Positions 1-58,821 of a stretch of DNA of 64,000 bases are shown in pieces. The position numbers and the translations under genes are program-made. This DNA comes from Nemertoderma westbladi (Eukaryota; Animalia; Xenacoelomorpha): NCBI GenBank assembly GCA_032718475.1, contig JAUCBJ010007177.1:92072-156071 (forward strand), read 5' to 3'. The notes under the pieces were generated by a model, which worked only from the letters and a program-made list of their open reading frames with translations, ran no database searches and was not told the origin of the DNA. Every line of letters begins with the position of its first letter. Position 1 is the first letter of the stretch.

Positions 1-29853
<29,853 letters not shown>

Positions 29854-33618: not shown

Positions 33619-35787
33619 TGATAAACAACCGCGACCTCTATACTAACAGCAGAACTGTTGAACAGACCAATACCCGTTAATATCCTTCTGCCAACCTAAT
33701 AAGCTCTCGCCTATCCAATAAGACACAAAGACTGCTCTACTGTTAAGTAAAGGGGATCAGGAGTGTGCTATTACTAAATTGTAAGGGTTGCTAAATACAA
33801 AACCGCTACTTACCGTTAGATGGCGCTAATCTGCCGTCCACTAATATATTTTACTAATTTTACACAACTCCTGCAAAATCGCTTGTTCCTTTCTCTACCG
33901 ATTGCTCAATAGAGAGCTAACTGTTCGAATCTATGAGCCACGCGGGAATAACCAAAACAATAAACCCGAGTCGGCTCCCTAAGCTTACTTAAGACGAGTG
34001 CGAGAGGCCTTGCACTCAGAGTATTCTTACGCCTAATTTTATCACTATTGAAGCACGCTATTACCTACGTCTTTCTAATCGCGAATACTGGGGTTTCTCT
34101 AACGTAATGTGTGAATGCGAGAATATTTAAAAATATCAAAATGGTACAGTATCTGTTTCTACGTGGATAATACCACCCCGAGTCTAAAACTGCCCGCGAC
34201 TGGCTTTAGGCCAGCAAAATTACTAGCGTATCGTGCGTACCGAATAGTGCGTTCTAGCTGATTGCCCGCTAATGCAAATAACCGCTCAGCGTGAATAGTT
34301 TACAGTACACTAATTATTACCTTAGCTACTCTCCGCTATGCTGCGTACTAATTCTTAATTTTTTACTAATTAGTTACAGTCACAAATATTTAACAGCGTA
34401 CTAATTACTAAGAGTTCCAGAATACGTAATTCTAATTTATCACGCAACAGGTTTCGATAGTAATAGCCTAATTTGCCGTATTACTTTGACCTAATCAATA
34501 ACTAATTATTGTAACTAAGAAATAGAAATCAATCAAAGGAAAAGAGCGCCTATCTAAACATTCGTAATCTTAGGCACACTTCAATAACACACCAATCAGC
34601 GTTAGAAATCACAGTTTACAATTATGCAATTCACTACTCGTACTCCACACTCAACGTTGTAATACGCGCAGGCCTCTCCCGGGTACATCTAGGATTCCTA
34701 ACTAACCCAATTCCTGCCCCCCTAATACTAAATAGAGACAAAACCTGGATCATCAGCCCCCTAGATACTGTACCGGCGATCGGTCTGCGTGCCGCAGTGC
34801 AAGTTACCCGCCCGCAACGGTGACTCTGGCCAGCGTTGCCCGCTTTGAATCCTCCGCTCTCTCCTAGTCGCTCAACCCCCCGATGCGCCCACCGCCCACT
34901 GGCACCTTAGCCCTTCATGATGCTAATAGCTACCGTAGCGGCGCATGCAAATCACAAAGTCTGACAGTCTCAGGAATCCCTTAGGATTATTGCGCAGAAA
35001 AGAATCACATAGAACCATTAATCAAAAGGTAGAAATCATAGTTCAGTTGTAATTAGCAGTAATCGAAGGAATTAATTGAGAAACACAAGCAAAGTAATCG
35101 CACTAGCAAATCATTCCAAGAAATTAATCAAAATTAGCAAATTGCAGAAAATACGATATCCTAATACAAAATTAGAGACAGCTCAGCAAGTAAAATGTAA
35201 CAGGGGTGTGTCATGTGATAAAGCATGAACATATGAACAAATATATGAACAACAAAGGCCCTACCGGCACACCGCCAATTTATAGGTGATCCGGATGGGG
35301 TGATGCAATAAGGTGACTCAATCGCTCTCCCATTGGCTCTCCAGTCCATGCTAGCATTAAACCAACCTGGAAGCAGTTAATCCAATAAGGAGACCGGATT
35401 GTAGCCCTATGCCCTCAAATTATTACCATATATGGTAATGGATCACGTCTCTGGCTGCTGAATGGCCAGGACAGCGTCCCTATATGCTAGCCCTATCAAA
35501 CTAATATCAGCAAGCACAGAATCCAGGGTCCGAATAAACTTGCTACCCTGGGACTATCTACATATCCTAATACAAAATTACGTAGGTAGGGCTACATACT
35601 ATACAAAATGAATGGATGCAAAATATATGGGCGTTTTAACTTCCTTACCTAAATACCACTGCGTTATTATGCCTTATCTAAAATATCATGCTGCACAACG
35701 GACTAATATTACGTACAGTATAACGGACTAATATTGCATACTGCATAACGGACTAATACTGTGGATACAGCGCCATATACCGTAACA
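33619..35787 (-). repeat. 3' LTR (2169 bp)
   Basis: Plus strand reads TGATAAAC...CCGTAACA. Same length as 50201-52369 and identical wherever spot-checked. Confidence 0.96.
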
Positions 35788-35795
35788 CCGCTCCA
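35788..35795 (-). other. Short, atypical polypurine tract (TGGAGCGG) directly before the 3' LTR
   Basis: Minus strand ...CCCTTGGAGCGG|TGTTACGG is in the PPT position but short and interrupted by a C. Confidence 0.45.
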
Positions 35796-36276
35796 AGGGA
35801 AATCATACAATGTTTCCCTCCAATTGTAGAAGAGTATAAGGTGATGTATACAAAACAAAATAAATTTCTTCCAACCAATCTAAATAACATAATAATTCTA
35901 CTATTTACAAATATTGCCATAGATATTGCATAATGAATTTACATACAAATTAAAATTACAAAATATTATCTCTCTCACTGTTTAACGATTATTACATACA
36001 AATTAAATTTACAAAATATTGTTTCTCGTTCATTCTTACTACATAATGATTACTACATACAAAATCAAATATAAAATTTTGCTAGGGCAAGTGAAAAGAG
36101 TAAGCCAAACCCGCAGGTTTGTCTCCCCAATCACTTCCTTCGCCTCTTTCATAATATAAATTCAAATAACTCAACTAGTGTATATGAGTCTAGTCGAAGA
36201 TTTTCAAATGCTACAATATACATCAGAGCGACGATGATGTATATATCTAGAGTCTGTCGCCCTGTGCCATAATGTA

Positions 36277-39200
36277 TTATCGACCCGCTCCTGGGTTCTT
36301 TGGGCTCGCTCCTCTCTTTCGCCCCCTTCCCAGATACACTAATCTACCTCTAGTCGACTCCGTTGACGGCGTCCGTGAGGCGTCACTCCCCGGAACTCGG
36401 CTCGAACTTCTCCCTCGGCCTCGTCCCAATTGTCGCGCTCCCGTGGTCGCTTCCGCCAACTCTTCCTTCTGCAGTTGCACACGCGCTTTCTCAGACGCCC
36501 CCTGCGCCTTGCGCTGCAACCTCTGTGCTTCTATAATTGAATGATAGTGGTCGTCCTTGACTTGACGCTTGTCTTGGACCCCTCCTCCTGGTTCTTTCCG
36601 CGAGCCTTGAGCTCCAGCGGTCGTCGCTGTGGTCGCTGCGATCCTTTGCTCTTGTATCCTCTCAGCGGTCAATGAACCCACTGGCACATGAGTTAACAAG
36701 AATTCGTTGCGGTACTGTATAGCCGCCATCCTCCAATCTCCTCGCGCGCGTACCACCTTTCTAGTCTCCGTAAATACACCCTTCGTAATGCGATCGCAAA
36801 TGGCAACGAAGTTCCATGTGTACTTATTGTCCATGTTCAATTGTCTGAAGTACTCTCGAACTACGATAACTCCAGTGTTCTGTGGAAGGTCTTGAGCAGT
36901 TAGGATGAGCTCCTGATATTGTGGTAGCGATTGTAGATATGGCTCGTACGCAACATGCGATGGGTCTACCGCCCAAAACCCATATCCCGCTTTAAATGGT
37001 AACCAACGCATCTGCGCTTGAATATGGTAATCCGCCACACTCTCCCACTTATCTAACATCTCCCGAAGTAGGTTAGCGCTATGGTTTTGAAAGGAATCAT
37101 CTCGCAGCTGACATCTCGCGCTACGATGTCCCTTTACCCCGCAATATCCGCATTGAGAAATGAAGACGGTGCACGTATGAAACGAATGGTCGGTCTCATT
37201 ACACCAACGACAGACCTTATGCGCCGCCTCTATTACCGCGTCGCACGACTTTAGATTGTGCCTTGTGCTGCCGCACAATTTGCACCTACGCGCTTGTGGA
37301 AACCAGGCCCTCTCGTATATGAGGTCTCCAATCAGTTTCGCACTTCCTTCCTTCCCAATGTCTAATACGATGTCGTCCTCTCCGGTCAACGGTTGTCGAT
37401 CCGGAACAAAGTAAACATCCTCGCCCTTGTCCTCTATCTCCAATATTTCCTCCCGCGTTCGTTTCGGATATGTCTTCTCCACCGGAAGATCTACTCCGAA
37501 CACCTCTACTAACGTTTCCGGCCAGCCCTCCTTAACAGGTCTATCAGCCTCCGAGTGGAAGGGAGTACCAAACCCGCGGGTTTGATTCCCGAACCACTTC
37601 TCCAAAGCTTCTGGCGTTGGATATTCCATCGACGGTCGGTCTCCCAAATCTCCGATGTTCTGTCGATATACTCCTTCGAATATCGCTAATCCTCTCCTCA
37701 CCATCGACGTATTCTCTAACGATTGGTTGAAGAACGGGGTTAAGAAACGCTTCATCACGTCGGATTGGATTCCCCCTTTCGAGCGAACGTATTGATCTCC
37801 TCCGAATACCAATGGATGACGCTTCAAAACTCGCGCAACGATATCCGCTAATAAACAAGTCACCGTGTTCGACTCAAGCACCAAATAATATTGTAGCGAC
37901 GCACGGGGTGGCGCGCAAATGTTCCAATACACTAACGCTTGCCGCTTGAAGTGGGATTTGAACTCCGCTCCCGGTGGCGTGTTGTATTCGCCATACGCCT
38001 CCTCGTACTTCTTCTGCGTCTTCAACTTAAAGTCCCAATTATACAACAAGTGTGCTATAAAGCCCATACCAGTCTTGGCAGAGTTGGGATACTCCCTATA
38101 AATTCCAATATCCTGTGCCCATAGCAACAATAGCTTGGTGTCGACAAACGGTCTCGGCAATCTATCTTCCAGATCAGTCATGGCGTTGAAGTCGCTCTCC
38201 AAATCGCTCTGGACTCCCGATCCCACCTTGACGTAATCTTGGTTGAGAATAGCCTCTCTAACCTTCTTTGGTAACATCCTGGCGTCGATACGCTCCGCTC
38301 CGTGCATACCTCCTCGCCTGCATACCTCCAAAATCTGTTCCCTAGGATCCTTCCCCTTCCGATATTGTGTCGTTATGATGGGCTCCGGTCTCTCTCGATC
38401 CGCCCTCACACGCATAAACACATGAGTCACACCATCGGCCGCACGAATCTGAATACACTTGCTGGTCAAGCATTCTTGATGGGACCCTCCTTCATTGTCG
38501 TAGAACATCACCCTCCAATCTTGCAGTGATTCCTCCGTTTTCCTCCACTGACGCTGAATCTCATCTGATGGGGTCCACATGCGCTCGATCGCCTTGTGGT
38601 CATCATATCGGGTATAAGAACCCTTCCTCCTCAGCCACGTCTGGTCTACCTCCTCGTCATCTGGGAATGTAGCCACCGCGACCCATACCTTGATGTACTT
38701 ATCCAACCATCCGAATAACTTACTCTCCTTCCCCGGAGCTCCAATCTTATCCAACGTGTCATAATCTGTGATCTGCATTGGGACATCACGCAAGAACTTC
38801 GCGCATAAAACTTCCCGTAAACAGTCAACGTTCCAATGGTCCGCCATTCTTACCATCGGCAAGAATCGTATCGCTTCTCGCGACTCCGGATGATCTACTA
38901 ATATCGCAGGTTCGGTGCCGTCGGAATAATACACCGGTCCGGGTTGAGATACGACCTGTGGAACAAATCCGGTCACTCTCCTCGTCTCCTCTTGATGTCT
39001 ATCCGCGGTCTTATTATACTCCGCTATCCTGTTCTCAAATAACTCCTTCGCCTTCGCCGCTCGCTCCTCCTGCCGCAACGCGTCCATGTCGTCCTGATGC
39101 TCAGGCGTGAGGCTTCTCACTCGGTGAGGTGAAGTAAACGCAGTCCAGGGACTCGAGAGCTCCAAACCCGCGGGTTTGGTACCCGAGTCCCGCGCCGCTT

Positions 39201-39951
39201 CGCGCCGCGCCTCTAGATCCTTATAGGCTCGGTACAGCGAAATGGCCGCTGCCGTCTCTATCAAACTGGGTGTCGAACAGGGTTTAATCTCCGTATACGG
39301 ATCTAATGTCGTAACGGTCGGCGTAATGGGTCTCGGAGGTCGCTTTCCGCTGAAGTCGATACTGATCATCGGGTTGCTCATCGGGTAACCTCCCTCGTTA
39401 TATCTAAGGAATTGGTGAGCTGGACATCGCGTTAATATCGGTTCCGGATGTTGCTCGTCTAATCGGTCGGGAATCGCCACGTCCTGTTTATTCATGCATT
39501 CACCACACTTGTAGAAGAGCTTGTATACGCTGAAGACTTTCGGCGTCTCCTGATCCTCGCCTCGAGTCCTCCGATACAGATGCATTCCGTCGAACTGGTC
39601 TCGGACTGCAGGTAGAGGCTCCTCATGTCGTAAATACATATTCATATGGTATAGTCGTGCGATTTCCTCGTCCGGATCTGCGCTAATGTCGCACACGTCC
39701 AAAGCAAAGTCGTAGGGATACCGCGTGCGATACTCTCTCCGCAAGACTTCCATCCGGTCCCCCAATGCTCTCATTCTTTCTCTCCGTAATTCTTTATCAT
39801 AACTTGGTTTATACTTCCCGTTCAGCTCCATCACGGACCGCCCATGGTAGTAAACGTTAGAGTTTTTACATCCTGGTCGCGCGAATGGTAGCTCCGCCTC
39901 CTCTCTGGCAGTAAATCCTCTGCGCGGTTGCGCTCTAATATCCCTCTCCAT
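36277..39951 (-). CDS. Extra retrotransposon ORF, 1224 aa: DnaQ/DEDDy (WRN/EXD/Mut-7-like) 3'-5' exonuclease domain, three CCHC zinc knuckles and an RG-rich tail
   Basis: ExoI-like VMFYDNEG (D485, E487) followed by CIQI; LPKKVREAILNQDYVKVGSGVQSD (D583); FVDT; GMGFIAHLL; W...QYYLVLES (Y689xxxE693). Knuckles CKLCGSTRHNLKSC, CRWCNETDHSFHTC and CGYCGVKGHRSARC (aa 890-947). C-terminal GRGRGR and GRGRKRG. The ORF is certain; the domain call is by motif recognition. Confidence 0.8.
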   Translation of the reverse strand: MERDIRAQPRRGFTAREEAELPFARPGCKNSNVYYHGRSVMELNGKYKPSYDKELRRERMRALGDRMEVLRREYRTRYPYDFALDVCDISADPDEEIARLYHMNMYLRHEEPLPAVRDQFDGMHLYRRTRGEDQETPKVFSVYKLFYKCGECMNKQDVAIPDRLDEQHPEPILTRCPAHQFLRYNEGGYPMSNPMISIDFSGKRPPRPITPTVTTLDPYTEIKPCSTPSLIETAAAISLYRAYKDLEARREAARDSGTKPAGLELSSPWTAFTSPHRVRSLTPEHQDDMDALRQEERAAKAKELFENRIAEYNKTADRHQEETRRVTGFVPQVVSQPGPVYYSDGTEPAILVDHPESREAIRFLPMVRMADHWNVDCLREVLCAKFLRDVPMQITDYDTLDKIGAPGKESKLFGWLDKYIKVWVAVATFPDDEEVDQTWLRRKGSYTRYDDHKAIERMWTPSDEIQRQWRKTEESLQDWRVMFYDNEGGSHQECLTSKCIQIRAADGVTHVFMRVRADRERPEPIITTQYRKGKDPREQILEVCRRGGMHGAERIDARMLPKKVREAILNQDYVKVGSGVQSDLESDFNAMTDLEDRLPRPFVDTKLLLLWAQDIGIYREYPNSAKTGMGFIAHLLYNWDFKLKTQKKYEEAYGEYNTPPGAEFKSHFKRQALVYWNICAPPRASLQYYLVLESNTVTCLLADIVARVLKRHPLVFGGDQYVRSKGGIQSDVMKRFLTPFFNQSLENTSMVRRGLAIFEGVYRQNIGDLGDRPSMEYPTPEALEKWFGNQTRGFGTPFHSEADRPVKEGWPETLVEVFGVDLPVEKTYPKRTREEILEIEDKGEDVYFVPDRQPLTGEDDIVLDIGKEGSAKLIGDLIYERAWFPQARRCKLCGSTRHNLKSCDAVIEAAHKVCRWCNETDHSFHTCTVFISQCGYCGVKGHRSARCQLRDDSFQNHSANLLREMLDKWESVADYHIQAQMRWLPFKAGYGFWAVDPSHVAYEPYLQSLPQYQELILTAQDLPQNTGVIVVREYFRQLNMDNKYTWNFVAICDRITKGVFTETRKVVRARGDWRMAAIQYRNEFLLTHVPVGSLTAERIQEQRIAATTATTAGAQGSRKEPGGGVQDKRQVKDDHYHSIIEAQRLQRKAQGASEKARVQLQKEELAEATTGARQLGRGRGRSSSRVPGSDASRTPSTESTRGRLVYLGRGRKRGASPKNPGAGR

Positions 39952-40708
39952 TATATTACGCGTATATACATATATATATATCCCAATAAGTGCCGTTACG
40001 TAACCAACTACACTGTGGGTAAATCAGTTAGATGTCGCCGAAGGACAGACCTCCCGAACCCCCCCCGCCTTCCAGCAGTTCAGGTTCGACTCTCTAGATC
40101 CCGTCTCTTCCTAACTAACTATCCTCTAACCTATTCCCATGCATAGCGCAAAAACTTTGGAGATAAACTGGCCGTGACCAACTCACTTTTTGATGCCCAA
40201 ACTACTCCCATTACTCCTACTAAACTACAGTAGTTAGAAAGGACCATAGTCACAATACTCGACTATACCAAACCCACAGGTTTGATAATCGAACATCACA
40301 CATCCTGCAAACTACTGAGTGGGGTCCATGTACGCCTCTGGTGCTACTAACCTTTAGCACCTTAGTTGCACTGTTGGCACCAATCTGTGGAAGTTGCTAA
40401 ACTCAATTTACACTCCTACGTAATATAGCCGTCACCATGGTTTCTAAATGCTATTTTCCAGGTTTCACGACTTTTCAAATTACTGTTTATCTATAGACGA
40501 ATTCTAAAACGCGTCTATATACAGCGTCTGGAATTGTCTTGGGTTCACTTTTCTAATTTTAAAATTTTTAATTTTCCAAAATTTTGAAAATAAAATTTTG
40601 TTTGATACCCACCAGACAAAACTCAATGCAAATCACCACAACCCCGCTCCTATGCATTTCCTTGTATTTGCATACGAGGAATGCATACGAAGTGAGTTGC
40701 GTCCAACA

Positions 40709-41590
40709 CTAACTCTGTTTTGAGGCAGGAGACAAATTATAATCTCCCGTCTCGATACGTGTCTCCTCTAATAACACAATATCTTGGACCGGTCGGTCCA
40801 AGGTGTGTAAACCTTTAGTTTTACACTTTTTTGGGTGCGGACACTTGCACCTAATTTTCACAGTGACTGTGCGCACTATGTTTTGCACGTCTGGGTGTGT
40901 GTGCAAGATCACTCCAGTCTCCCAATACTTTCTCTTGACAATCGGTTCGGTTATCAACACGTAATCTCCCCTTTGGAGACTCCGAACCGTTTTGTACCAC
41001 TTTGTTCTGGTAGATATGGTGGGAAGATAGTATTCCCGCCAATATTCCCAGAATGTGTACGCCACAAACTGTGTTACTTTCCAGCTTTTACGACTATATA
41101 GGTCGGCACTAATGGGTTCTGATGCCGGCACAAGAAATGCTGGACTCTGCATTAGCAAATGATTCGGCGTTAATGCAACACCGTCTGGCAACATAGCTAT
41201 CGGCCTCGAGTTTAGGGTATGCTCGATTTCAATGAAAGCTGTGACCAGTTCGTCGTCGGTAAGTTGTTTGTTCACAGGCAACGTTTTGGCAATGGCCTGC
41301 TTCACAGAGCGAACTAAACGCTCCCAACTTCCTCCTCTCCAAGGACTTTCTGGAGTATTGAATCTCCACTCAACTCTTTGCGGCAAAAGTGCTGCAGAAA
41401 TTTCCTTATTCTGTGCTGCTTTATGAGCCGCGTTCAACTCGCTATTCCCTCCGACAAAGTTTGTACCCTTGTCAGAGTAGAATGCCTTTACTAGTCCTCT
41501 CCTGGCCATAAATCTCTTTAAGGCCAGGAGCAGAGATTTGGTCGACATGTCTGCCACACGCTCAATGTGTATGGCTCTACTCGCCATACA
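40709..41590 (-). pseudogene. C-terminal part of the Bel/Pao integrase (DDE core and C-terminal domain), out of frame with gag-pol
   Basis: CMASRAIHIE...LKRFMARRG...SDKGTNFVG...PWRGGSWERLVRSVK...LNSRPI...LTPNHLL...FWEYWREYYL...RPVQDIVLL are typical Bel/Pao integrase motifs. Confidence 0.9.
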
Positions 41591-44500
41591 TCCATCGCTT
41601 GTGGGTCAGCCGTCCACTCTTTGCTTCAATCGGACCAAAACAGTCCACCCCTGTATTCGTAAAGGGTGGGTCATATGCCTGCACTCTCGCTTCCGGGAGT
41701 TCAGCCATCTCCTGTTCCAATACTCTGGCGTTCACCCTCTTGCAAACCAGACAGGCGTCGTACATAGTGCCGACTGCCCTGCTTGGCTGCAATAGAATGA
41801 ATCGCTGTCTCGCTGCCGACAAACAGTGTAACCTTCCCGCGTGATGCAACCTCTTATGTATATCCCATAGAATCGCTCTTTGCAATTCCATCGGGTAACT
41901 AGGGATTATCACTGGGAATCGAAACTGTGAGTTTATGTCGACAGTCTGGATTCTCGATCTATGACAAATTAAACCCTTATGGATTAATGGACTCCATTTT
42001 CTAAGGGGTTTATAGAGAACTGGTCGTTGAGCCGATAATAGATGGAATTCTTTAGGGAAGGCACACATTTGATAATATCTCAAATGCTTTAATTCCGCTT
42101 GATCAATCTCATCCTCTGTCAGAGGTTGTTTCAATTTCCGAATTCGCTCACTATTGGTGCTCAATGGTTCTCTCAAATGTTTCGAATGTTTTATACAAAG
42201 GTACGAAACGTATCGGCTTAACCACGCAGTTCTTTTACAAATTGTCAGCCAAGAGGCAGACGAATTTAGTAATTTGTCATAAATACTGCATGACTCTAAT
42301 GCCAGCGACGGTTGTCCGCTAACTAATGGAAGTTTCGAATCCAAACCCGCAGGTTTGGAAACCAAGGGATCCATTGTGTCGGTCATTTTCTGTCCGTCAC
42401 TTACCAATTGTGACTCCAGTTTAGTCTGTAAGGGTGGTTTTATGTCGTAACTTACCCTTCCTGACCTAGTAGTCACGTAAGTCTGTTGGTCTGACAGGTC
42501 TCCGGGCCGCTCCAATGACTCTTCAGGCCGCTCCAATGACTCTTCAGGCCGCTCCAATGACTTAAGTTTGGCTTTAGACTTTGACTTAGAGACTTTCTCC
42601 ACCTTGACTTCTGCATCTTCAGGCATCGGATTGGTCACTATCTTTAGTCGCTCTGGCCAATGTTCCTGTGTCCTCGTTAGAAAATCAGGTCCATGCAACC
42701 AAAACTCCTGCGACTCTTCCTGACAGAATTCTGCCGGCATTACACCTCTCGAAGTTATGTCGGCCGGGTTCAACACTCCCGGACAATGTCTCCATTGTTC
42801 CTTCGTCGAAAAGTCAACGATCTGAGCGCGTCTATTGGCCACAAATGTCTTTAGTGCAATATTGTCGGCCGCAATGTATACTAACACCAAGGATGCGTCC
42901 GTCCAATAGAATAAGGTCAATGTCGTGTCTAACTCCTCAATTATTTGCTTACTTACCTCGACTGAAACTACAGCCACCTGTAACTCTGCACGAGGGACAG
43001 TCATGTATTTGACCGGCATTGTCTTTGATCTAGAAGTCACAAAGGCCGTCTCAAATTTGTCCTGACTTACCTCTCGGCAAAGGTAGGCTACCATACCAAA
43101 GCCGGTGTCACTTGCGTCACTAAATAGGTGGAGTTCGAGATCAGCTGGAAATACCAGCTGATTCGGAAAGTAGGATCGGGGCACATCTATATTTTTCAAT
43201 AGATGCAACTCGGCTTCCCACTCTCTCCACTGCTTTGCATGTATAGGAGATATTGGTTCGTCCCACTCTAAGTCGGACAACCAAATTTTCCTCATGCACG
43301 CTCGTGCCTGTAATATAACCGGACTGATAAAGTTCATCGGGTCAAATAGTCTACTTAGTGTCGATAAGCAAATTCTCTTTGTCAAAACTTTGTCTGGGCT
43401 ACTGGGCTCAAATCTAACTCTTACCTGGAACTTATCCGAATTCGGATTCCAAGCGAGTCCCAGTACTCGCGCCATGGGGATTGGTTCTACCCCCAATTCT
43501 ATGTCTCCGCTCCCGCGATCTTTTACCGGGAACGATTCTAATAGGGCCTCCGAATTAGTAGTGAACTTGGTCAGAGGAAATCCCCCTGTAGCCAAGCACT
43601 CCTGTAGGCCGTGAGCCACTTCTATGGCTTGTTCCGCCGTGTCCTTGGACACCAATCCGTCGTCCATGTAGAAGTTTCTCAGGATGGACTCGATAACCTC
43701 TACTGGGTACTTACCAATCTGGGCTGTTGCCGTTTTCTTTAAAACGAACAGCGTGCCATTCGGACTATCGCGGGCGCCAAATATCCTAACGTACATTTGG
43801 TATGTAACCACTGGGCCGGATAAGTCTTCATTCTCGTACCAGAGAAAGCGAAGGCTATCCTGGTCTGCCTTACAGGCTCTTACCTGGTGGAACATCGCCT
43901 CGATGTCACAAGTAAATGCGAATCGCCGCTGTCTAAAACGCAACAGTATTCCAATCAAATAGTTATTCAGGTTGGGACCATCCATCAACTCTGAATTCAG
44001 GGACATACCTCTATAGACTGCTGCGCAGTCGTTGACTACTCGGACTTTGTCTGGCTTGTCAGGGTGAGTCACATAGTGGTGTGGAAGGTAATAAGTCTGG
44101 TCTGTCACTAAGTCAGGGTCCTCTACCTTCCCAGCAAATCCCTTGGCGAAATAGTTGTTGATCTGGGCGCAATACTTCTCCCTAATGCCTGGATTCCTCA
44201 ACAACCGAGCCCTTACTCCGTTCAATCTTTTCAAGGCTAAGTTGTAGTTGTTCTCCAACTTAGGAGGTTGTCGACGCCACAACATTCCAACTTCAAAATG
44301 TCCAGTCGGTAGCAGACGTATGGTGTCTTCCATCATCTCCAGCGACCGTTTCTCATCAGTAGACATGGCTAGGTCATATCCACCGGGTTCCATTGCGTCC
44401 CTGTCCAGCCATTCGACGGTTCTAGCTCCTGTCTCGAGGTCCTGGCGTATCAATTCCTTCTGTAGCTCCTCCTCACTGTATTGGAAAATGTCGAGGTCTC

Positions 44501-47500
44501 GATATTTAGCCACTTGACCCTCCACTATGTCTGTATAAGTCAAAACGTTAGTCAAATAGGTAGCGTGGGCCGCTGAACCAGACCCACGGGTCTGATAACA
44601 GTAGTCCTCGGGTTCACTATCTGTCCGGTCGTTATGAAGTGGTTCCGACAACCTAACATTATCGGGAATCAACTCCTCGTCCGACTCGCTAAAGTCACTA
44701 TAGTGGTCAATACAGGTTCTCCTAAACTCGTCTATGTCTGGTGGTTCTACTAACGGTGGTTGAGTTATAGGCTGTAATTCATCGTATCTGTTCATTGGCT
44801 TGTCGCCACCTGTAAACTCATAAGACATGGGTACTCTTGTATACCAACCTAGTATGGTCCTATGGGCATGTGGTCCATTGACATGCGGCTCAGCTGGTCT
44901 CGTTTCCCATATCTGGTGTGCGATCAGCTGTTCTGCACCAATTAACATGGAAACATTCCTATAACCTACCTGGTGTCTGGGTATCCTGAGCTTGTCAAAA
45001 TACTCCTGTGCTATGGGACTCATCGGCGGCACCTTACCTAACTGCCTGCCGAATCCCTTCATAGCTAGACACTTAAATCCGTCCAATGGCAAAGCTTTCC
45101 GTTCTTGTCGAGTGTGTTGGTCTCTCGGAAGTAGGGAATCTAGTTCTACCGAAATTCTGTGTCCCTTGAGGTCTCCTACCCCGTGCATAGACTTCAACTC
45201 TATTTGGATCTCCTCGGCGTCCTGGAAGCTAGAAACGGCTCTCGCCACTTCCTCGTCGATATAAGATAATGTGGACGCAGTGTCCAACATCACATATATT
45301 CGCTTCGATCCCTTATCGCCAGTGAGTTTCACCGGAATCACGCTAAATATTTCCGACGTGGCCGATGATAAATACGTCCGCGCGCTGGTCGATGAACTAT
45401 CCGCGGTGAAACCTTGGCAGGTCACTTCTCTCGCGCTCGACTCGCCATCCTCGTCCGACGAACCTGGTTGGTAACCATCGTCCTGGATGCCAGTGTACGT
45501 ATTCCTCCTTATCGATATGGGTTCTTTGCTCCCCTTCCTGTGAGGATTTCGCTGTAAGTAACGGTCCGTTGGGGTGTGGAAATCCGCATGTAGCAACTTG
45601 TGATGTAGTCTGCCGCATTCCATGCATCCGTCCTTGCTGTTCGGGCACTGCCGCCGTACATGGCCTGGCGCAAGACATGCCCAACAGGTGTCCAACGTCC
45701 GCACTTGAACTCTTCTCTGTTCCGAATTTAATTCTTTGAACCGTCTGCAACTATCTAACTTATGGTCGTCAGATCTTACCTCCTTTAGTAAACAGTATTG
45801 GCAACCTACAAATCCATCCGGCAACTCCTGTTGCTTTAACCTAGGTCTATCTAACCGCTCACCTGACCATACTCGCGAGTCTGATCTAAAGGCTGGGGTA
45901 TTCGAATTATATCTGTCTACTGAGTTAAATGTCACAGTGGTCCTGTCATCGTCAAAACTTACCATAGACTTACCGGTAACAGGTTTAGACTCTCTCATAT
46001 TCTCTTCTGAGAAGTTTGATTTCATCTCTGCTACTGCGTCTGTGGCTATCATGTCATGAATATGCTGAAGTGTCAACACCTTACCTTGGCCCTCCAACTT
46101 ATTCTCTAATTTGCGCCATTTCTGTCTGTAACGCATGTTTAAACGTCTTATTACGCTTTTCAAAACTTCGGCGTGATCACCATGATGAGGTAGATTCACC
46201 GTCCTCAAGATGTCCAATGCGTTCGAAATAGCGTTCGCTAAGTTCAACAGCTCTAACGGAGTTGTAATCCTTCCGCCCTTACCCAAGTCTTCTACTATCG
46301 ACTGTGCCATCTTGGTTTTATTCCCGTAGATGTCACTAAGTGTCTTCATCGCTAACTCGAATGCTCTTTCGTTGCCGACGAAGTTATCAGCAATGGCTCT
46401 AGGTTCTCGATGGAGCATCTGAAGCAAATAGTTGAACTTCTCGTTGGGAGTAAAGGTGCTGTTGGTTAGCTGCTCGTCGACATAGGTTTTGAAGGTCCTC
46501 CAATGTTTGTGGTTGCCCATAAACTTCTGGGGTTGTTGCGTCGGCAGTCCTTGCCTAGCAGCAAACTTACCTATGTCTCTAAGGGTTGCGTCGTTCCGGG
46601 TTAACAAATGGTTTAGTTCCGCAGGGTTATTAAGTCTGGTCCTTTCCCGGTGGTTCCAACTTACCTGCTCCGCGTCGGTCCTTCTTTCCTTATAGTTTCG
46701 GGACTTCTGACGTCTCATTTCTTCCTCTTCATCGCTTGACTCAGTGTCAGTCCTTAGCGCTCGCGATGGTTTGCGCGCCGAGGCCCTGACCCAAGCATCC
46801 TCAATAAATTTCTCTGCCGAATTTTCGAAATTGGGATTATGAATATTCGGGACAGGCGTCCTTACCTGAGGTCTATGTGGTATAGTCTCCTCCGATATGC
46901 GTACTCGTTGACTAGGCTGGACTTTATCTAACTCAGGCCTGCTGGGATTAGAATTACTTCTTACCTGGGCTGCTTCCTTTAACCGTAGGTTGCTAAGCAT
47001 GTCCGTTATAGGTTGGATGTGCGGCGATATAGCTTGCGCTAAACTAGCACTTAACTCATCCCTCGTAATAAATTCCTGGCTAGGGTTCTGTTGTATAGTC
47101 GGCTCTATCTGAGTAATCCGCTGTCTCTCATATGATCCCTCTTCCGGTTTAACCCGGAAGTTCTCCGTCGAACTGGGTCGGCGCTCCGTCCCCGTATTCC
47201 AAACCCGCGGGTTCGGTTCGCCCAATACTCGGCCCGTCGGAGTTTCTCTAAACTCTTCATTGTCTCGTTCGGTATACAGTGGTGCGGTGTTCCGATGACG
47301 TAGATCCTGCGCGATAGGTGAAGCACTAATACCAACTGGCGTGCGATATGTAGAGAATGGTTTAGCGATCCGTGTACTCGTAATAGCTGGACCAGGTATA
47401 GGAATTCTGGTCGTCGTCGACTCGCGTATGGTCGGAGTTCTCGCTTCCTGTTCGGCCTTCTGCAGTGCGAACAGTTCTCGCAACTCAGTCCCTACACTCG

Positions 47501-48773
47501 CCCCACATTCTTCGATCATTCGCATCCCCTTCTCGGCGATTTCGTTCGCCTTCCTAGTCCGTTCTTCGCTCTCTAAACTTAATCTCGCACTTTCCAACTG
47601 CGCCAGTTTACGTTCTTCTTCCTCCCTTGCTCGTCTCGCTGCGCCCTCTTCTTCTACACGCGCCTTCTCTTCATACAACGCCCGTCTCTCCCTCTCGCGC
47701 TCAAGTTCGCGCTCCTTGCGCTCGCGTTCGAGTTGGAGTTCGTATTCCCTGTGTTCGCGTTCCTTCTGTTCGCGTTCGAGCTGGAGTTCGCGTTCCTTGC
47801 GTTCGCGTTCCTTCTGTTCGCGTTCGAGCTGGAGTTCGCGTTCCTTGCGTTCGCGTTCCGCTTGCTCGCGCTTACCTTTCTCTTCCAACTCTCGCAACTT
47901 TGCGTCTAACTTACGTGTTCGCTCCCGTTCCCGCTCGGCTTCCTTCCGTGCTTCCGATGCACACAAAACTTCTGCCTGTTGTTCGTCTAGTCGGCGTCTT
48001 CTCTCCTCTGCCGAGTTGTGAGAAACAAGGGATCTAGCACATATTACCTTACCTCGCGCGTGACTAACCTGGGAATCGCCGCTGTCTCTAGATGCGTCAT
48101 CAGGTGGAGTCAACGTCCTCTGTTGGATGTTCTCCGTCGTCGGTAGCACCTGACCTGGTACCACCACTCCATTCTGCATCAGCCAGCTAGTAACTTCCCT
48201 TTGATACCTGCGCTCCTCCTTGTCTTGGATCTCTTCTCGCTCCACTAACTCTCTCAACTCTGCGTCACTCACTTGAGTCGCCTGCGCTTGTGATGCCCAT
48301 AGCAGCCAGTTCTCCGTCCTAACTCGTCGGAATCGCTCTGATAACTCGCGGTGTTCCAACAAGGCTGCTAAAACCCTGTCGTAAATCCTCGTTGCTACGT
48401 CGCTTGACTGAGACTCTACTGCCTTCTTCGCTAGGACTGCAAGCTCCTCCGTCTGCTTGAATAACGCTGAGTTATATCCTCTTCTAATCTCTACTAACCC
48501 TTCCCGTCCGATGTTCGCTGAGTCGGCTAACATCTTCCTTACCTTGTCCGTCGTCCGAGTTATATGTCCGGCGTGCGCGCGAAGTTTCTTTTTTATCGCG
48601 ATATCGAACTCTCTATCACTCACCTGACTTACGCTCGGTGGACTTGAAGGATTATTTCGGGAACTACGGGTACTCCTTACAGCCGTCGGGACCACGGCAC
48701 TTACCATACCCACAGGTCTGGAAACCGGGCTCCGGGCTCTCGCTTCTGCTACACTACCCTCCCTATCACTCAC
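41577..48773 (-). CDS. Bel/Pao Gag-Pol polyprotein (coiled coil, Gag, three Cys/His knuckles, aspartic protease, RT, RNase H, integrase N-terminus); start codon uncertain and frameshifted inside integrase
   Basis: Gag PQKFMGNHKHWRTF...EKFNYL; knuckles CWACLAPGHVRRQC and CMECGRLHHKLLH; protease LDTAS (about 45273-45284); RT YLPHH...KVRVV...GPNL...DIEAMFHQV...YMDD (43659-43670); RNase H FSDAS...PRAEL...WTDA...NPAD; integrase H-H-CLVC and GVDCFGP. Confidence 0.95.
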   Translation of the reverse strand: MSDREGSVAEARARSPVSRPVGMVSAVVPTAVRSTRSSRNNPSSPPSVSQVSDREFDIAIKKKLRAHAGHITRTTDKVRKMLADSANIGREGLVEIRRGYNSALFKQTEELAVLAKKAVESQSSDVATRIYDRVLAALLEHRELSERFRRVRTENWLLWASQAQATQVSDAELRELVEREEIQDKEERRYQREVTSWLMQNGVVVPGQVLPTTENIQQRTLTPPDDASRDSGDSQVSHARGKVICARSLVSHNSAEERRRRLDEQQAEVLCASEARKEAERERERTRKLDAKLRELEEKGKREQAERERKERELQLEREQKERERKERELQLEREQKEREHREYELQLERERKERELERERERRALYEEKARVEEEGAARRAREEEERKLAQLESARLSLESEERTRKANEIAEKGMRMIEECGASVGTELRELFALQKAEQEARTPTIRESTTTRIPIPGPAITSTRIAKPFSTYRTPVGISASPIAQDLRHRNTAPLYTERDNEEFRETPTGRVLGEPNPRVWNTGTERRPSSTENFRVKPEEGSYERQRITQIEPTIQQNPSQEFITRDELSASLAQAISPHIQPITDMLSNLRLKEAAQVRSNSNPSRPELDKVQPSQRVRISEETIPHRPQVRTPVPNIHNPNFENSAEKFIEDAWVRASARKPSRALRTDTESSDEEEEMRRQKSRNYKERRTDAEQVSWNHRERTRLNNPAELNHLLTRNDATLRDIGKFAARQGLPTQQPQKFMGNHKHWRTFKTYVDEQLTNSTFTPNEKFNYLLQMLHREPRAIADNFVGNERAFELAMKTLSDIYGNKTKMAQSIVEDLGKGGRITTPLELLNLANAISNALDILRTVNLPHHGDHAEVLKSVIRRLNMRYRQKWRKLENKLEGQGKVLTLQHIHDMIATDAVAEMKSNFSEENMRESKPVTGKSMVSFDDDRTTVTFNSVDRYNSNTPAFRSDSRVWSGERLDRPRLKQQELPDGFVGCQYCLLKEVRSDDHKLDSCRRFKELNSEQRRVQVRTLDTCWACLAPGHVRRQCPNSKDGCMECGRLHHKLLHADFHTPTDRYLQRNPHRKGSKEPISIRRNTYTGIQDDGYQPGSSDEDGESSAREVTCQGFTADSSSTSARTYLSSATSEIFSVIPVKLTGDKGSKRIYVMLDTASTLSYIDEEVARAVSSFQDAEEIQIELKSMHGVGDLKGHRISVELDSLLPRDQHTRQERKALPLDGFKCLAMKGFGRQLGKVPPMSPIAQEYFDKLRIPRHQVGYRNVSMLIGAEQLIAHQIWETRPAEPHVNGPHAHRTILGWYTRVPMSYEFTGGDKPMNRYDELQPITQPPLVEPPDIDEFRRTCIDHYSDFSESDEELIPDNVRLSEPLHNDRTDSEPEDYCYQTRGSGSAAHATYLTNVLTYTDIVEGQVAKYRDLDIFQYSEEELQKELIRQDLETGARTVEWLDRDAMEPGGYDLAMSTDEKRSLEMMEDTIRLLPTGHFEVGMLWRRQPPKLENNYNLALKRLNGVRARLLRNPGIREKYCAQINNYFAKGFAGKVEDPDLVTDQTYYLPHHYVTHPDKPDKVRVVNDCAAVYRGMSLNSELMDGPNLNNYLIGILLRFRQRRFAFTCDIEAMFHQVRACKADQDSLRFLWYENEDLSGPVVTYQMYVRIFGARDSPNGTLFVLKKTATAQIGKYPVEVIESILRNFYMDDGLVSKDTAEQAIEVAHGLQECLATGGFPLTKFTTNSEALLESFPVKDRGSGDIELGVEPIPMARVLGLAWNPNSDKFQVRVRFEPSSPDKVLTKRICLSTLSRLFDPMNFISPVILQARACMRKIWLSDLEWDEPISPIHAKQWREWEAELHLLKNIDVPRSYFPNQLVFPADLELHLFSDASDTGFGMVAYLCREVSQDKFETAFVTSRSKTMPVKYMTVPRAELQVAVVSVEVSKQIIEELDTTLTLFYWTDASLVLVYIAADNIALKTFVANRRAQIVDFSTKEQWRHCPGVLNPADITSRGVMPAEFCQEESQEFWLHGPDFLTRTQEHWPERLKIVTNPMPEDAEVKVEKVSKSKSKAKLKSLERPEESLERPEESLERPGDLSDQQTYVTTRSGRVSYDIKPPLQTKLESQLVSDGQKMTDTMDPLVSKPAGLDSKLPLVSGQPSLALESCSIYDKLLNSSASWLTICKRTAWLSRYVSYLCIKHSKHLREPLSTNSERIRKLKQPLTEDEIDQAELKHLRYYQMCAFPKEFHLLSAQRPVLYKPLRKWSPLIHKGLICHRSRIQTVDINSQFRFPVIIPSYPMELQRAILWDIHKRLHHAGRLHCLSAARQRFILLQPSRAVGTMYDACLVCKRVNARVLEQEMAELPEARVQAYDPPFTNTGVDCFGPIEAKSGRLTHKRWMYGE

Positions 48774-49018
48774 CTCTGTCCGACTGCTATACAGTCCTTC
48801 CTTACAGTAGCGGTAGGGGATCCTAATACTATTACTTGAGGTTGTTGTTCTTCCTCACTAGTCACTGTCTCGTCCTCCTGTTCACTTACGTCAGCGTCGC
48901 TCGCTGCGTCGTCATAGTCGGCATTGTCATCAACAGTAATGTTTACGCTATCGTCAGTCGGCGGTCCAGCCGCCGTCTCATAGCTGTCCTCTAGTGCCTC
49001 TTTGTCTGAGACACTCAT
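48770..49018 (-). CDS. 82-aa acidic leader ORF overlapping the gag start (GTGA overlap); either the true N-terminus of gag or the first exon of a spliced mRNA
   Basis: ATG-initiated, D/E-rich. Its TGA overlaps the GTG that opens the 2398-aa ORF, and the junction reads AG|GTGAGT. Confidence 0.55.
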   Translation of the reverse strand: MSVSDKEALEDSYETAAGPPTDDSVNITVDDNADYDDAASDADVSEQEDETVTSEEEQQPQVIVLGSPTATVRKDCIAVGQR

Positions 49019-50190
49019 AGTCTAAATAATGTTTGCCTTCCGGCAAAATATCTCACAAAATTCGAGATATAATTATAATTTAACCGAAACACGGTCAAAT
49101 TATTTGTCAAATATCAGTTGGTCCAAATGTCAAATAAATTCGCAATGCAATATTGTGAATTTAATGGGGTATATAGTTATAGCAAATACTAACACAATAT
49201 TTAAACAAAAATATTATTCTATAGCTACTATATAGTATTAAATACCGGTATAGCACAAAATAACTTTGAATCTAATACAAAATATTCAAAATATACTTGC
49301 CGCCCGAATATTTCTAATTTTATATATAGCTCTAATCAACGTAATTTTAATTTCAAATATTATATGTATCCACTAGCGCGTGGCTACATCTTCGGGTTGC
49401 GACTCTCTCTAACTCTCTCTCTAACTTGAGCGATTCAAAACCATGGCCGGCTAAACCTAAATATCCTAACTAATAAATTGAGTTCAGCTTCGCAGTTAAA
49501 CAACCGATAATTTTTTACTGCTTCCACAAACACACTGGTGCCAACAGAACAACTAACCTTGTTTGCTGTGAGATTCCACGTCCGCGTCCAAAGATTCAGG
49601 CCCTTCGCTGATTGCAAACCGAACCCGCAGACCCACACGAACCCCAAACTCAGAAGTCCCGTCTTGCCATGTATCTCCAGATGGTATAAAATAACTAAGC
49701 GGTTACCTAACATACCGGTACAAAACTCTAGAATTTTACAAAATAATTTTGACCGAAACTGAATTCTCGCAAACCTAGCTAATAATTTTCAAAAAAACTT
49801 ACTAATTACTGTTTGCCCTAAGGCCTAAGGAACTGCTGTATTCGCAATTAGCAAAACGTACTACCGTACATCCACTGTATGCAGTACAGTAAGTAAAACA
49901 GTACACCAACCTAACAGCCTAATGATACTGTATGTGGTACGGCAAAACAAATGTCCCTTCTACCGTACGCAGTAACAACAATCAGCCTAATGTACTACTG
50001 TACTATTGTACGCAGCCAGTGAATACAGTAATCTAAACTAACAGCCTAACAGAATATACTTAATGTTCTACCGTACGCTAGCCTATAGCCTACAGCAGAC
50101 GATCACGTGCTCCAATTTATTACTTAATACTGTGATACTACTTTCAGCCTAAGAATACACTATTGACCGCTGCAAGCAACAGCCAATAAA

Positions 50191-50200
50191 CGCGTATTAC
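50191..50200 (-). other. Putative primer-binding site GTAATACGCG, complementary to LTR-internal sequence rather than to a tRNA CCA end
   Basis: Immediately follows the 5' LTR end (TTATCA|GTAATACGCG). Its exact reverse complement on the RNA strand is at 51241-51250 and 34659-34668. Confidence 0.6.
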
Positions 50201-52369
50201 TGATAAACAACCGCGACCTCTATACTAACAGCAGAACTGTTGAACAGACCAATACCCGTTAATATCCTTCTGCCAACCTAATAAGCTCTCGCCTATCCAA
50301 TAAGACACAAAGACTGCTCTACTGTTAAGTAAAGGGGATCAGGAGTGTGCTATTACTAAATTGTAAGGGTTGCTAAATACAAAACCGCTACTTACCGTTA
50401 GATGGCGCTAATCTGCCGTCCACTAATATATTTTACTAATTTTACACAACTCCTGCAAAATCGCTTGTTCCTTTCTCTACCGATTGCTCAATAGAGAGCT
50501 AACTGTTCGAATCTATGAGCCACGCGGGAATAACCAAAACAATAAACCCGAGTCGGCTCCCTAAGCTTACTTAAGACGAGTGCGAGAGGCCTTGCACTCA
50601 GAGTATTCTTACGCCTAATTTTATCACTATTGAAGCACGCTATTACCTACGTCTTTCTAATCGCGAATACTGGGGTTTCTCTAACGTAATGTGTGAATGC
50701 GAGAATATTTAAAAATATCAAAATGGTACAGTATCTGTTTCTACGTGGATAATACCACCCCGAGTCTAAAACTGCCCGCGACTGGCTTTAGGCCAGCAAA
50801 ATTACTAGCGTATCGTGCGTACCGAATAGTGCGTTCTAGCTGATTGCCCGCTAATGCAAATAACCGCTCAGCGTGAATAGTTTACAGTACACTAATTATT
50901 ACCTTAGCTACTCTCCGCTATGCTGCGTACTAATTCTTAATTTTTTACTAATTAGTTACAGTCACAAATATTTAACAGCGTACTAATTACTAAGAGTTCC
51001 AGAATACGTAATTCTAATTTATCACGCAACAGGTTTCGATAGTAATAGCCTAATTTGCCGTATTACTTTGACCTAATCAATAACTAATTATTGTAACTAA
51101 GAAATAGAAATCAATCAAAGGAAAAGAGCGCCTATCTAAACATTCGTAATCTTAGGCACACTTCAATAACACACCAATCAGCGTTAGAAATCACAGTTTA
51201 CAATTATGCAATTCACTACTCGTACTCCACACTCAACGTTGTAATACGCGCAGGCCTCTCCCGGGTACATCTAGGATTCCTAACTAACCCAATTCCTGCC
51301 CCCCTAATACTAAATAGAGACAAAACCTGGATCATCAGCCCCCTAGATACTGTACCGGCGATCGGTCTGCGTGCCGCAGTGCAAGTTACCCGCCCGCAAC
51401 GGTGACTCTGGCCAGCGTTGCCCGCTTTGAATCCTCCGCTCTCTCCTAGTCGCTCAACCCCCCGATGCGCCCACCGCCCACTGGCACCTTAGCCCTTCAT
51501 GATGCTAATAGCTACCGTAGCGGCGCATGCAAATCACAAAGTCTGACAGTCTCAGGAATCCCTTAGGATTATTGCGCAGAAAAGAATCACATAGAACCAT
51601 TAATCAAAAGGTAGAAATCATAGTTCAGTTGTAATTAGCAGTAATCGAAGGAATTAATTGAGAAACACAAGCAAAGTAATCGCACTAGCAAATCATTCCA
51701 AGAAATTAATCAAAATTAGCAAATTGCAGAAAATACGATATCCTAATACAAAATTAGAGACAGCTCAGCAAGTAAAATGTAACAGGGGTGTGTCATGTGA
51801 TAAAGCATGAACATATGAACAAATATATGAACAACAAAGGCCCTACCGGCACACCGCCAATTTATAGGTGATCCGGATGGGGTGATGCAATAAGGTGACT
51901 CAATCGCTCTCCCATTGGCTCTCCAGTCCATGCTAGCATTAAACCAACCTGGAAGCAGTTAATCCAATAAGGAGACCGGATTGTAGCCCTATGCCCTCAA
52001 ATTATTACCATATATGGTAATGGATCACGTCTCTGGCTGCTGAATGGCCAGGACAGCGTCCCTATATGCTAGCCCTATCAAACTAATATCAGCAAGCACA
52101 GAATCCAGGGTCCGAATAAACTTGCTACCCTGGGACTATCTACATATCCTAATACAAAATTACGTAGGTAGGGCTACATACTATACAAAATGAATGGATG
52201 CAAAATATATGGGCGTTTTAACTTCCTTACCTAAATACCACTGCGTTATTATGCCTTATCTAAAATATCATGCTGCACAACGGACTAATATTACGTACAG
52301 TATAACGGACTAATATTGCATACTGCATAACGGACTAATACTGTGGATACAGCGCCATATACCGTAACA
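50201..52369 (-). repeat. 5' LTR (2169 bp)
   Basis: Minus strand reads TGTTACGG...GTTTATCA. Direct repeat of 33619-35787. Confidence 0.96.
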
Positions 52370-55300
52370 CACTGACTGGGAGGTACAGCCCCACCTAGAG
52401 ACACTGACTGGGAGGTACGGCCCCATCTAGAGACACTGACTGGGAGGTACGGCTCCACCTAGAGACACTGACTGGGAGGTACAGCCCCACCTAGAGACAC
52501 TGACTGGAAGGTACGGCCCCACCTAGAGTCACTGACTGGGAGGTACGGCCCCACCTAGAGTCACTGACTGGGAGGTACAGCCCCACCTAGAGACACTGAC
52601 TGGGAGGTACGGCCCCATCTAGAGACACTGACTGGGAGGTACGGCCCCACCTAGAGACACTGACTGGGAGGTACAGCCCCACCTAGAGACACTGACTGGG
52701 AGGTACAGCCCCACCTAGAGACACTGACTGGGAGGTACAGCCCCACCTAGAGACACTGACTGGGAGGTACGGCCCCATCTAGAGACACTGACTGGGAGGT
52801 ACGGCCCCACCTAGAGACACTGACTGGGAGGTACAGCCCCACCTAGAGACACTGACTGGAAGGTACGGCCCCACCTAGAGTCACTGACTGGGAGGTACGG
52901 CCCCACCTAGAGAGACACTGACTGGGAGGTACGGCCCCACCTAGAGAGACACTGACTGGAAGGTACGGCCCCACCTAGAGTCACTGACTGGGAGGTACGG
53001 CCCCACCTAGAGAGACACTGACTGGGAGGTACAGCCCCACCTAGAGACACTGACTGGAAGGTACGGCCCCACCTAGAGTCACTGACTGGGAGGTACGGCC
53101 CCACCTAGAGAGACACTGACTGGGAGGTACAGCCCCACCTAGAGACACTGACTGGGAGGTACAGCCCCACCTAGAGACACTGACTGGAAGGTACGGCCCC
53201 ACCTAGAGTCACTGACTGGGAGGTACGGCCCCACCTAGAGAGACACTGACTGGGAGGTACAGCCCCACCTAGACACACTGACTGGGAGGTACGGCCTCAC
53301 CTAGAGACACTGACTGGGAGGTACGGCCCCACCTAGAGACACTGACTGGGAGGTACGGCCCCACCTAGAGAGACACTGACTGGGAGGTACGGCCCCACCT
53401 AGAGACACTGACTGGGAGGTACAGCCCCACCTAGAGACACTGACTGGGAGGTACGGCCCCACCTAGAGACACTGACAGGGAGGTACAGCCCCACCTAGAG
53501 ACACTGACTGGAAGGTACGGCCCCACCTAGAGTCACTGACTGGGAGGTACGGCCCCACCTAGAGAGACACTGACTGGAAGGTACGGCCCCACCTAGAGTC
53601 ACTGACTGGGAGGTACGGCCCCACCTAGAGAGACACTGACTGGGAGGTACAGCCCCACCTAGAGACACTGACTGGAAGGTACGGCCCCACCTAGAGTCAC
53701 TGACTGGGAGGTACGGCCCCACCTAGAGAGACACTGACTGGGAGGTACAGCCCCACCTAGAGACACTGACTGGGAGGTACAGCCCCACCTAGAGACACTG
53801 ACTGGAAGGTACGGCCCCACCTAGAGTCACTGACTGGGAGGTACGGCCCCACCTAGAGAGACACTGACTGGGAGGTACGGCCCCACCTAGAGACACTGAC
53901 TGGGGGGGGGGGGGGGCGGCCCCACCTAGAGACACTGACTGGGAGGTACGGCCCCACCTAGAGTCACTGACTGGGAGGTACGGCCCCACCTAGAGACACT
54001 GACTGGGGGGTACGGCCCCCACCTAGAGAGACACTGACTGGGAGGTACGGCCCCACCTAGAGACACTGACTGGGAGGTACGGCCCCACCTAGAGACACTG
54101 ACTGGGAGGAACGGCTCCACCTAGAGACACTGACTGGGAGGTACAGCCCCACCTAGAGACACTGACTGGAAGGTACGGTCCCACCTAGAGACACTGACTG
54201 GGGGGACGGCCCCACCTAGAGAGACACTGACTGGGAGGTACGGCCCCACCTAGAGACACTGACTGGGGGGGGGGGGGGGACGGCCCCACCTAGAGACACT
54301 GACTGGGAGGTACGGCCCCACCTAGAGTCACTGACTGGGAGGTACGGCCCCACCTACCCACCTAGAGACACTGACTGGGAGGTACGGCCCCACCTAGAGA
54401 CACTGACTGGGAGGTACAGCCCCACCTAGAGACACTGACTGGGAGGTACGGCCCCACCTAGAGACACTGACTGGGAGGAACGGCTCCACCTAGAGACACT
54501 GACTGGGAGGTACGGCCCCACCTAGAGACACTGTCTGGGAGGTACGGCCCCACCTAGAGACACTGACTGGGAGGTACAGCCCCACCTAGAGACACTGACT
54601 GGAAGGTACGGCCCCACCTAGAGTCACTGACTGGGAGGTACGGCCCCACCTAGAGAGACACTGACTGGGAGGTACGGCCCCACCTAGAGACACTGACTGG
54701 GAGGTACGGCCCCATCTAGAGACACTGACTGGGAGGTACGGCCCCACCTAGAGACACTGACTGGGAGGTACAGCCCCACCTAGAGACACTGACTGGGAGG
54801 TACGGCCCCATCTAGAGACACTGACTGGGAGGTACGGCCCCACCTAGAGACACTGACTGGGAGGTACAGCCCCACCTAGAGACACTGACTGGGAGGTACG
54901 GCCCCATCTAGAGACACTGACTGGGAGGTACGGCCCCACCTAGAGACACTGACTGGGAGGTACAGCCCCACCTAGAGACACTGACTGGAAGGTACGGCCC
55001 CACCTAGAGTCACTGACTGGGAGGTACGGCCCCACCTAGAGAGACACTGACTGGGAGGTACGGCCCCACCTAGAGAGACACTGACTGGAAGGTACGGCCC
55101 CACCTAGAGTCACTGACTGGGAGGCACAGCCCCACCTAGAGACACTGACTGGAAGGTACGGCCCCACCTAGAGTCACTGACTGGGAGGTACGGCCCCACC
55201 TAGAGAGACACTGACTGGGAGGTACAGCCCCACCTAGAGACACTGACTGGGAGGTACAGCCCCACCTAGAGACACTGACTGGAAGGTACGGCCCCACCTA

Positions 55301-58793: not shown

Positions 58794-58821
58794 TACTCCT
58801 GTACTCTACAGCTCTAGACTG

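Follow-up and report, generated by a model that had tools for sequence, protein, structure and literature searches.

Self-priming of reverse transcription has been reported for Tf1/sushi elements, for Tcn1 and for the copia lineage TAR (PMC6317226, PMC6934838, PMC3601003). In Tf1, the RNA's first 11 bases pair with its primer-binding site (PBS), and RNase H cleaves between base 11 and base 12 (PMC7175516). Tf1 and Tf2 of Schizosaccharomyces pombe and the Tf1/sushi (Tcn1) chromoviruses have no tRNA PBS and carry a short segment of their own LTR that is complementary to the PBS adjoining the LTR end. In the TAR lineage of plant Ty1/copia elements (Houba, Osr-1), self-priming was likewise predicted from complementarity between PBS and LTR; the operational test for a self-primer was at least 10 nt of complementarity, with the PBS 0–5 nt after the LTR (PMC6317226).

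In the ICTV profile, the Belpaoviridae have a PBS of 18 nt that binds host tRNA-Arg or tRNA-Gly, LTRs measuring 0.2–1.2 kb and genomes of 4.2–10 kb (PMC8742986). The tRNA-type PBS is a described trait of the family, and membership itself rests on reverse transcriptase (RT) phylogeny. By term search, the words primer, PBS and tRNA were absent from the accessible text of a Bel/Pao survey (PMC3118150), and self-priming was not mentioned in the accessible part of PMC3286476. Among open-access titles and the beginnings of abstracts, we found no self-primed or splice-primed Bel/Pao element. The nematode Bel/Pao element Cer7 is said to carry its own tRNA-like primer, which our search of the open-access literature did not confirm.

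The element described here occupies positions 33619–52369 (minus strand, 18,751 nt) of the window, by which we mean the whole 64,000-nt stretch that was analysed. It shares Pao-type Gag-pol domains, TG...CA LTRs, a 5-nt target duplication and a polypurine tract (PPT) with the Belpaoviridae profile, and differs from it in lacking a tRNA-type PBS, in its LTR size (2.17 kb) and in its length (18.75 kb). Like the Tf1/sushi elements, it has an LTR segment complementary to its PBS, but those elements have a Ty3/gypsy chromovirus Pol, whereas the window element has Bel/Pao domains and so does not belong to that lineage. It also differs from Tf1 in that its R-U5 would be ~1 kb and no supporting stem was found; we infer its RNA start and cut. 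In most of its Bel/Pao relatives, unlike in Tf1, the primer spans a splice junction. The TAR lineage belongs to another superfamily and kingdom, and the accessible text describes no splice-built primer for it (PMC6317226). The bdelloid rotifer elements Juno and Vesta share with the window element an additional third ORF. Theirs is a DEDDy ORF3 (PMC5408684), whereas that of the window element has 1,248 aa with zinc knuckles and a stretch that is only putatively exonuclease-like.

Anatomy and genomic setting of the element

The features of the element are listed in Table 1. The domain order DUF1759, Peptidase_A17, Integrase_H2C2, DUF5641 is that of a Bel/Pao-type Gag-Pol (PR-RT-RH-IN), and the closest homologs of its pol were proteins of 35–42% identity with the same domains. 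The TG...CA LTRs, the target duplication and the PPT are likewise those of Bel/Pao elements. Judged by these features, the element is a member of Bel/Pao, and the pol domains confirmed the identity proposed in the first-pass annotation. On the RT tree, the element sat on a long branch next to neighbours without support, so its placement is unsupported. A pol query matched none of the viral contigs, and exact LTR-end patterns had no match in viral and prokaryote collections. An Rfam search of the element returned no family of note, and no tRNA genes were found within the window.

Table 1. Coordinates of the features of the Bel/Pao element, counted along the window
Feature	Position	Strand	Remarks
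Target-site duplication	52370..52374; other copy 33614–33618	-	CAGTG, 5 nt
5′ LTR	50201..52369	-	2,169 nt, TG...CA; 100% identity with 3′ LTR
Rival promoter	51861..51918	-	the LTR's only TATAAA (51866), with CCAAT (51918); predicted RNA start near 51835
GC/CpG-rich block	51370..51469	-	65% GC, 11 CpG per 100 nt; possible TATA-less promoter
Candidate self-primer	51241..51250	-	10 nt complementary to the PBS, ends in AC; eleventh pair G-U at 51251
Predicted intron	50322..50395	-	74 nt, consensus donor and acceptor, 120 nt from LTR end; junction a poor PBS partner
PBS	50191..50200	-	no TGG, starts with GT, directly 3′ of the LTR's CA
Predicted hairpin	50161..50188	-	12 bp, immediately 3′ of the PBS
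gag-pol frame	41577..48854	-	2,425 aa stop to stop; DUF1759, Peptidase_A17 (Pao RNase H region), integrase zinc finger
Integrase remainder	40709..41605	-	different frame (DUF5641)
ORF3	36277..40023	-	1,248 aa; three CCHC-type knuckles, weakly 3′-5′ exonuclease-like stretch
Putative PPT	35788..35794	-	short purine-rich tract adjoining the 3′ LTR
3′ LTR	33619..35787	-	2,169 nt; second copy of the 10-mer at 34659–34668

The identical LTRs and the CAGTG duplication indicate a recent insertion. Although the LTRs are identical, the pol frame stops inside the integrase core (41577–41605) and resumes in another frame; because of this break near 41580–41605, the copy may be defective or misassembled. 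The summed contig depth of the family reached tens of thousands in two samples, which suggests a high-copy family, depth not being equal to copy number.

The insertion site is a satellite with a 32-bp unit. Two large satellites occupy positions 1–29687, 31418–33618 and 52369–57976 of the window, the other one having a 46-bp unit in ~655 copies. An acidic ORF of 82 aa (48770–49018, minus strand) begins upstream of gag in another frame and ends at a consensus splice donor (48773), with more donors nearby at 48704, 48632 and 48623. This ORF may represent exon 1 of gag or of an ORF3 message made by splicing, or else reflect a frame break in this copy. Outside the element, a host ORF of 220 aa with a G-patch domain was found at 58143–58805 (minus strand), which we take to resemble PinX1.

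Complementarity between the PBS and the LTR

In the first-pass annotation, the 10 nt that follow the 5′ LTR were reported to contain no TGG and to be the exact complement of a segment inside the LTR, extendable by a G-U pair; direct reading confirmed this. Positions 50200–50191 form Watson–Crick pairs with 51250–51241 over 10 nt. The geometry claimed at the terminal CA of the LTR was also found, as the duplex stops exactly at the LTR boundary. TGG was absent at offsets 0–5 after the 5′ LTR. A TGG 15 nt past the LTR was considered as a PBS and ruled out, since the repeat and the target duplication define where the LTR ends.

A match of at least 10 nt at offset 0 arose in 13 of 5,000 dinucleotide shuffles, and a match at offsets 0–2 in 46 of 5,000. 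Complements within the LTR were present for 22 of the 14,403 internal 10-mers of the element; the chance of about 0.2% given earlier was thus about right. When the search was loosened (offsets 0–4, splicing allowed), the LTR reached 10 nt with two of 13 foreign PBSs, both of the same sequence. Because this looser search also matches foreign PBSs, the match taken alone is modest evidence for self-priming. With 10 nt at offset 0, the pairing falls within the operational definition of a self-primer (PMC6317226).

A spliced primer was also sought in the window LTR, where the best candidate paired over 8 nt, less than the contiguous 10. The predicted 74-nt intron sits where relatives have their primer intron, yet its junction pairs weakly with the PBS of the element, and no spliced joint for it was present among the 15 contig joints listed. 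The intron may be what remains of a former spliced primer.

Within the family, the 10-mer varies. In three runs, which came from two samples, two changes (plus strand: 51243 A>G, 51249 C>T) each made up 16–24% of the summed contig depth; they probably lie on one subfamily. Against the PBS of the window, the changed 10-mer weakened the computed duplex from -13.1 to -4.3 kcal/mol, a comparison in which the variant copies' own PBS may differ. The 10-mer was not better conserved than its flanks (two of 10 sites varied, versus 19 of 211 outside). Divergent forms of the family leave the alignment at the edges of the 10-mer (51250/51249 and 51240/51239); among 18 of the 43 loose ends, several lie at 51250/51249 and 51240–51236. 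Two of these forms, compared by eye, keep the C at 51250 and a TAC ten bases on, with other letters between; the consensus of one is mixed (agreement 0.82) and the other comes from a single contig.

Two further observations concern the family contigs. In several variants, the block 51735–51843, beginning 23 nt behind the TATAAA, is swapped for other sequence. On one contig of run X5, the loose end at 49980 (plus strand) resembles a template-switch adapter motif. X5 may be a cDNA library, with antisense RNA perhaps beginning at 49980, as judged from this single contig.

Covariation of primer and PBS in related families

Relatives were selected from an RT alignment, from which 80 loci were fetched (the best 80 of 503 confirmed; 36–43% amino-acid identity). 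The core set comprised 13 loci, one per family, in which the LTR's 3′ end was set by a direct repeat with CA or TA as its last bases. Of the initial 17 loci, four were left out: L003 because it belongs to the family of L004, L047 and L057 because their end does not fall on CA, and L058 because of a contig end.

In 10 of the 13 families, 11–15 nt of the PBS pair with a splice junction, formed by a GTAAG...AG intron that lies within the family's own LTR. When PBSs were swapped between families as a control, at least 11 nt were reached in two of 182 pairs (two families sharing one primer) and at least 10 nt in six. The remaining three families reached 10 nt each after post hoc relaxing of the search. 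In L022, the 10 nt are contiguous, at offset 0 and in the 5′ LTR, intron-less as in the window element; in L067, the 10-nt match is spliced and lies in the 5′ copy; in L006, it involves a weak donor. A blind scan found matches in 14 of 62 loci (of the 80) and none in two controls; many of the other loci had no LTR on the contig.

Across 21 families, eight of which were found through the search itself, there were 18 distinct primers, and in 19 families the primer ends in AC, like that of the window element. The sister loci L017 and L039 have primers that differ at two positions, and the PBS matches both changes. In L075 (1–240 and 6935–7265), the primer of one LTR copy is interrupted by a 117-nt GT-AG intron, and exactly this intron is missing from the other copy. 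The intron was thus lost precisely, with the reservation that the contig may be a join of two copies. Separately, L041 carries a 2.6-kb direct repeat (1–2631 and 6722–9352) that includes coding sequence and represents a tandem element or an assembly overlap.

In six of 10 loci (L004, L052, L058, L059, L066 and L080), the offset of the PBS (0–4) equalled the number of bases that separate the 3′ LTR from the PPT motif; it came within 1 of this number in three and was off by 3 in one, with the boundary of the PPT motif set by hand. This agreement fits a symmetric-ended cDNA that starts at the paired base, and the matching offsets suggest family-specific cDNA overhangs trimmed by integrase. The window element resembles L022: its offset is 0, its PBS starts with GT, its primer ends in AC and its purine tract adjoins the LTR. 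The distance from primer to LTR end is 1,040 nt in the window element versus 99–203 nt in the relatives.

Covariation among related families, a check set in advance, was thus found: the kind of pairing is the same and the letters differ. Because related families keep the pairing with different letters, elements of the group probably use their own RNA to begin DNA synthesis, and at the level of this Bel/Pao group self-priming is well supported by comparison of sequences. The self-priming proposed earlier thereby gained support from the group, to which the element's own PBS adds that it stands in the group's register (GT start, primer ending in AC).

Candidate priming route and alternative explanations

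We consider it probable, on the evidence of the pairing and its relatives, that this element is primed in a Tf1-like manner by the segment 51250–51241. The transcript would begin at about 51249–51251, and its 5′ end would fold back over ~1 kb onto the PBS, perhaps after shortening by splicing. The element's own RNase H would then cut behind the final AC of the primer, as in Tf1, and RT would extend the freed primer into U5 (PMC7175516). Most relatives have an intron within the primer, whose two parts would be joined by splicing; the window family would be the intron-less form. If plus-strand synthesis copies the primer into the PBS, the two would change in step. A PBS copied into single-stranded DNA is retained in about half of Tf1 cDNA (PMC11042837); such copying would couple primer and PBS, and this coupling would explain the many different primer sequences.

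Folding was predicted for the full unspliced 1.13-kb 5′ RNA, in which PBS and primer had a pairing probability of 0.0. Among relatives, a pairing probability of at least 0.65 was predicted for nine of 15 spliced RNAs and one of 15 unspliced ones. A Tf1-like extra U5 stem was not found by prediction in the window element (rank 341 of 410). An apparent extended duplex of -38.6 kcal was not special. Shortening of the leader restored the predicted pairing, but so did random deletions (median 0.86 of 30), which makes no case for a particular intron. Such long-range predictions are weak evidence either way.

A start of transcription at 51249–51251 is plausible, and the promoter motifs point both ways. 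We lean towards self-priming with this start. The main alternative is a sub-case of self-priming without the Tf1 feature that the primer is the first bases of the RNA. Here, transcription would begin at the TATA promoter (~51835), and the primer would be internal, with a 5′ tail of ~585 nt and one cut at 51240. The only TATAAA of the LTR, accompanied by CCAAT, lies 616 nt upstream of 51250; family divergence also starts at 51843, just behind it. The window copy has neither a TATA box 30 nt upstream of 51250 nor a CA initiator. Against this alternative, a CA stands at or beside the first paired base in 12 of the 21 families (P about 6e-6), where it would serve as initiator, and in L005/L017 a TATA box precedes that base by 31 nt. 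In addition, the window's family, in the forms seen, retains 51250 as C and 51249 as a purine, and the GC/CpG-rich block lies 120–220 nt upstream of the candidate primer. We therefore regard the TATA start as unlikely. No AATAAA was found within the LTR.

Priming by a host small RNA, such as a tRNA fragment, with the LTR match arising by chance, is rather improbable. It would agree with the host-tRNA priming given for the family by the ICTV (PMC8742986) and with half-tRNA priming in copia lineages (PMC6317226). The 10-nt matches of the long LTR to foreign PBSs in the loose search and the variation of the 10-mer within the family are also in its favour. However, TGG is missing at offsets 0–5, and all 13 delimited relatives are self-complementary with differing letters that one host RNA could not serve. 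The match of the window element, moreover, sits in the GT/AC register of the group.

The first-pass annotation had further suggested that an encoded exonuclease trims the primer. Maturation of the primer end by ORF3 is very doubtful. DEDDy ORF3s do occur in rotifer LTR elements; a term search of the main text of that paper found no link of ORF3 to priming and no occurrence of self-prim, PBS or tRNA (PMC5408684). A Pfam search of ORF3 gave no match. One homolog search returned nothing and another a single homolog, P0121 (27% identity over 162 aa), which itself has a sub-threshold 3′-5′ exonuclease match (E 0.2). In the pairwise alignment, however, the first acidic motif of P0121 falls opposite non-acidic ORF3 residues, and a D-x-E lies three places off. 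A search with P0121 returned only itself, and matches to solved structures were confined to the zinc knuckles. The middle part of ORF3 had no meaningful match, and its fold models (pLDDT 33–34) matched no fold. Most relatives show the pairing signature, and short relatives such as L004, L022 and L052 have it and lack a long third ORF between the LTRs; ORF3 is therefore not needed for the signature, and the proposed trimming found no support.

Retroelement leaders commonly contain long-range 5′ pairing, but a purely structural role of the pairing (packaging, dimerisation or a translation switch), with priming by something else, is hardly credible given that the pairing always starts 0–5 nt from the LTR end, that its offset tracks the PPT–LTR spacing as expected for the start point of cDNA, and that no other PBS is present.

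Returning to self-priming, on balance we favour a broader model. A broad animal group of Bel/Pao elements would have dropped tRNA priming, with the spliceosome building the self-primer from two LTR exons and replication depending on splicing. The giant family of the window would be an intron-less derivative, in which primer and PBS change together and subfamilies with private primer/PBS pairs co-exist in one genome.

Self-priming in Bel/Pao would run contrary to the textbook description of the family as tRNA-primed. Bel/Pao replication has been called poorly understood and is assumed to be tRNA-primed, and self-priming has so far been attributed to Tf1/sushi gypsy elements and predicted in one copia lineage. 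If true, ours would be a third independent origin of self-priming, mostly with splice-built primers, and the family description would need revision. It would also explain why PBS searches miss such elements, which may in this way escape control by host tRNA fragments.
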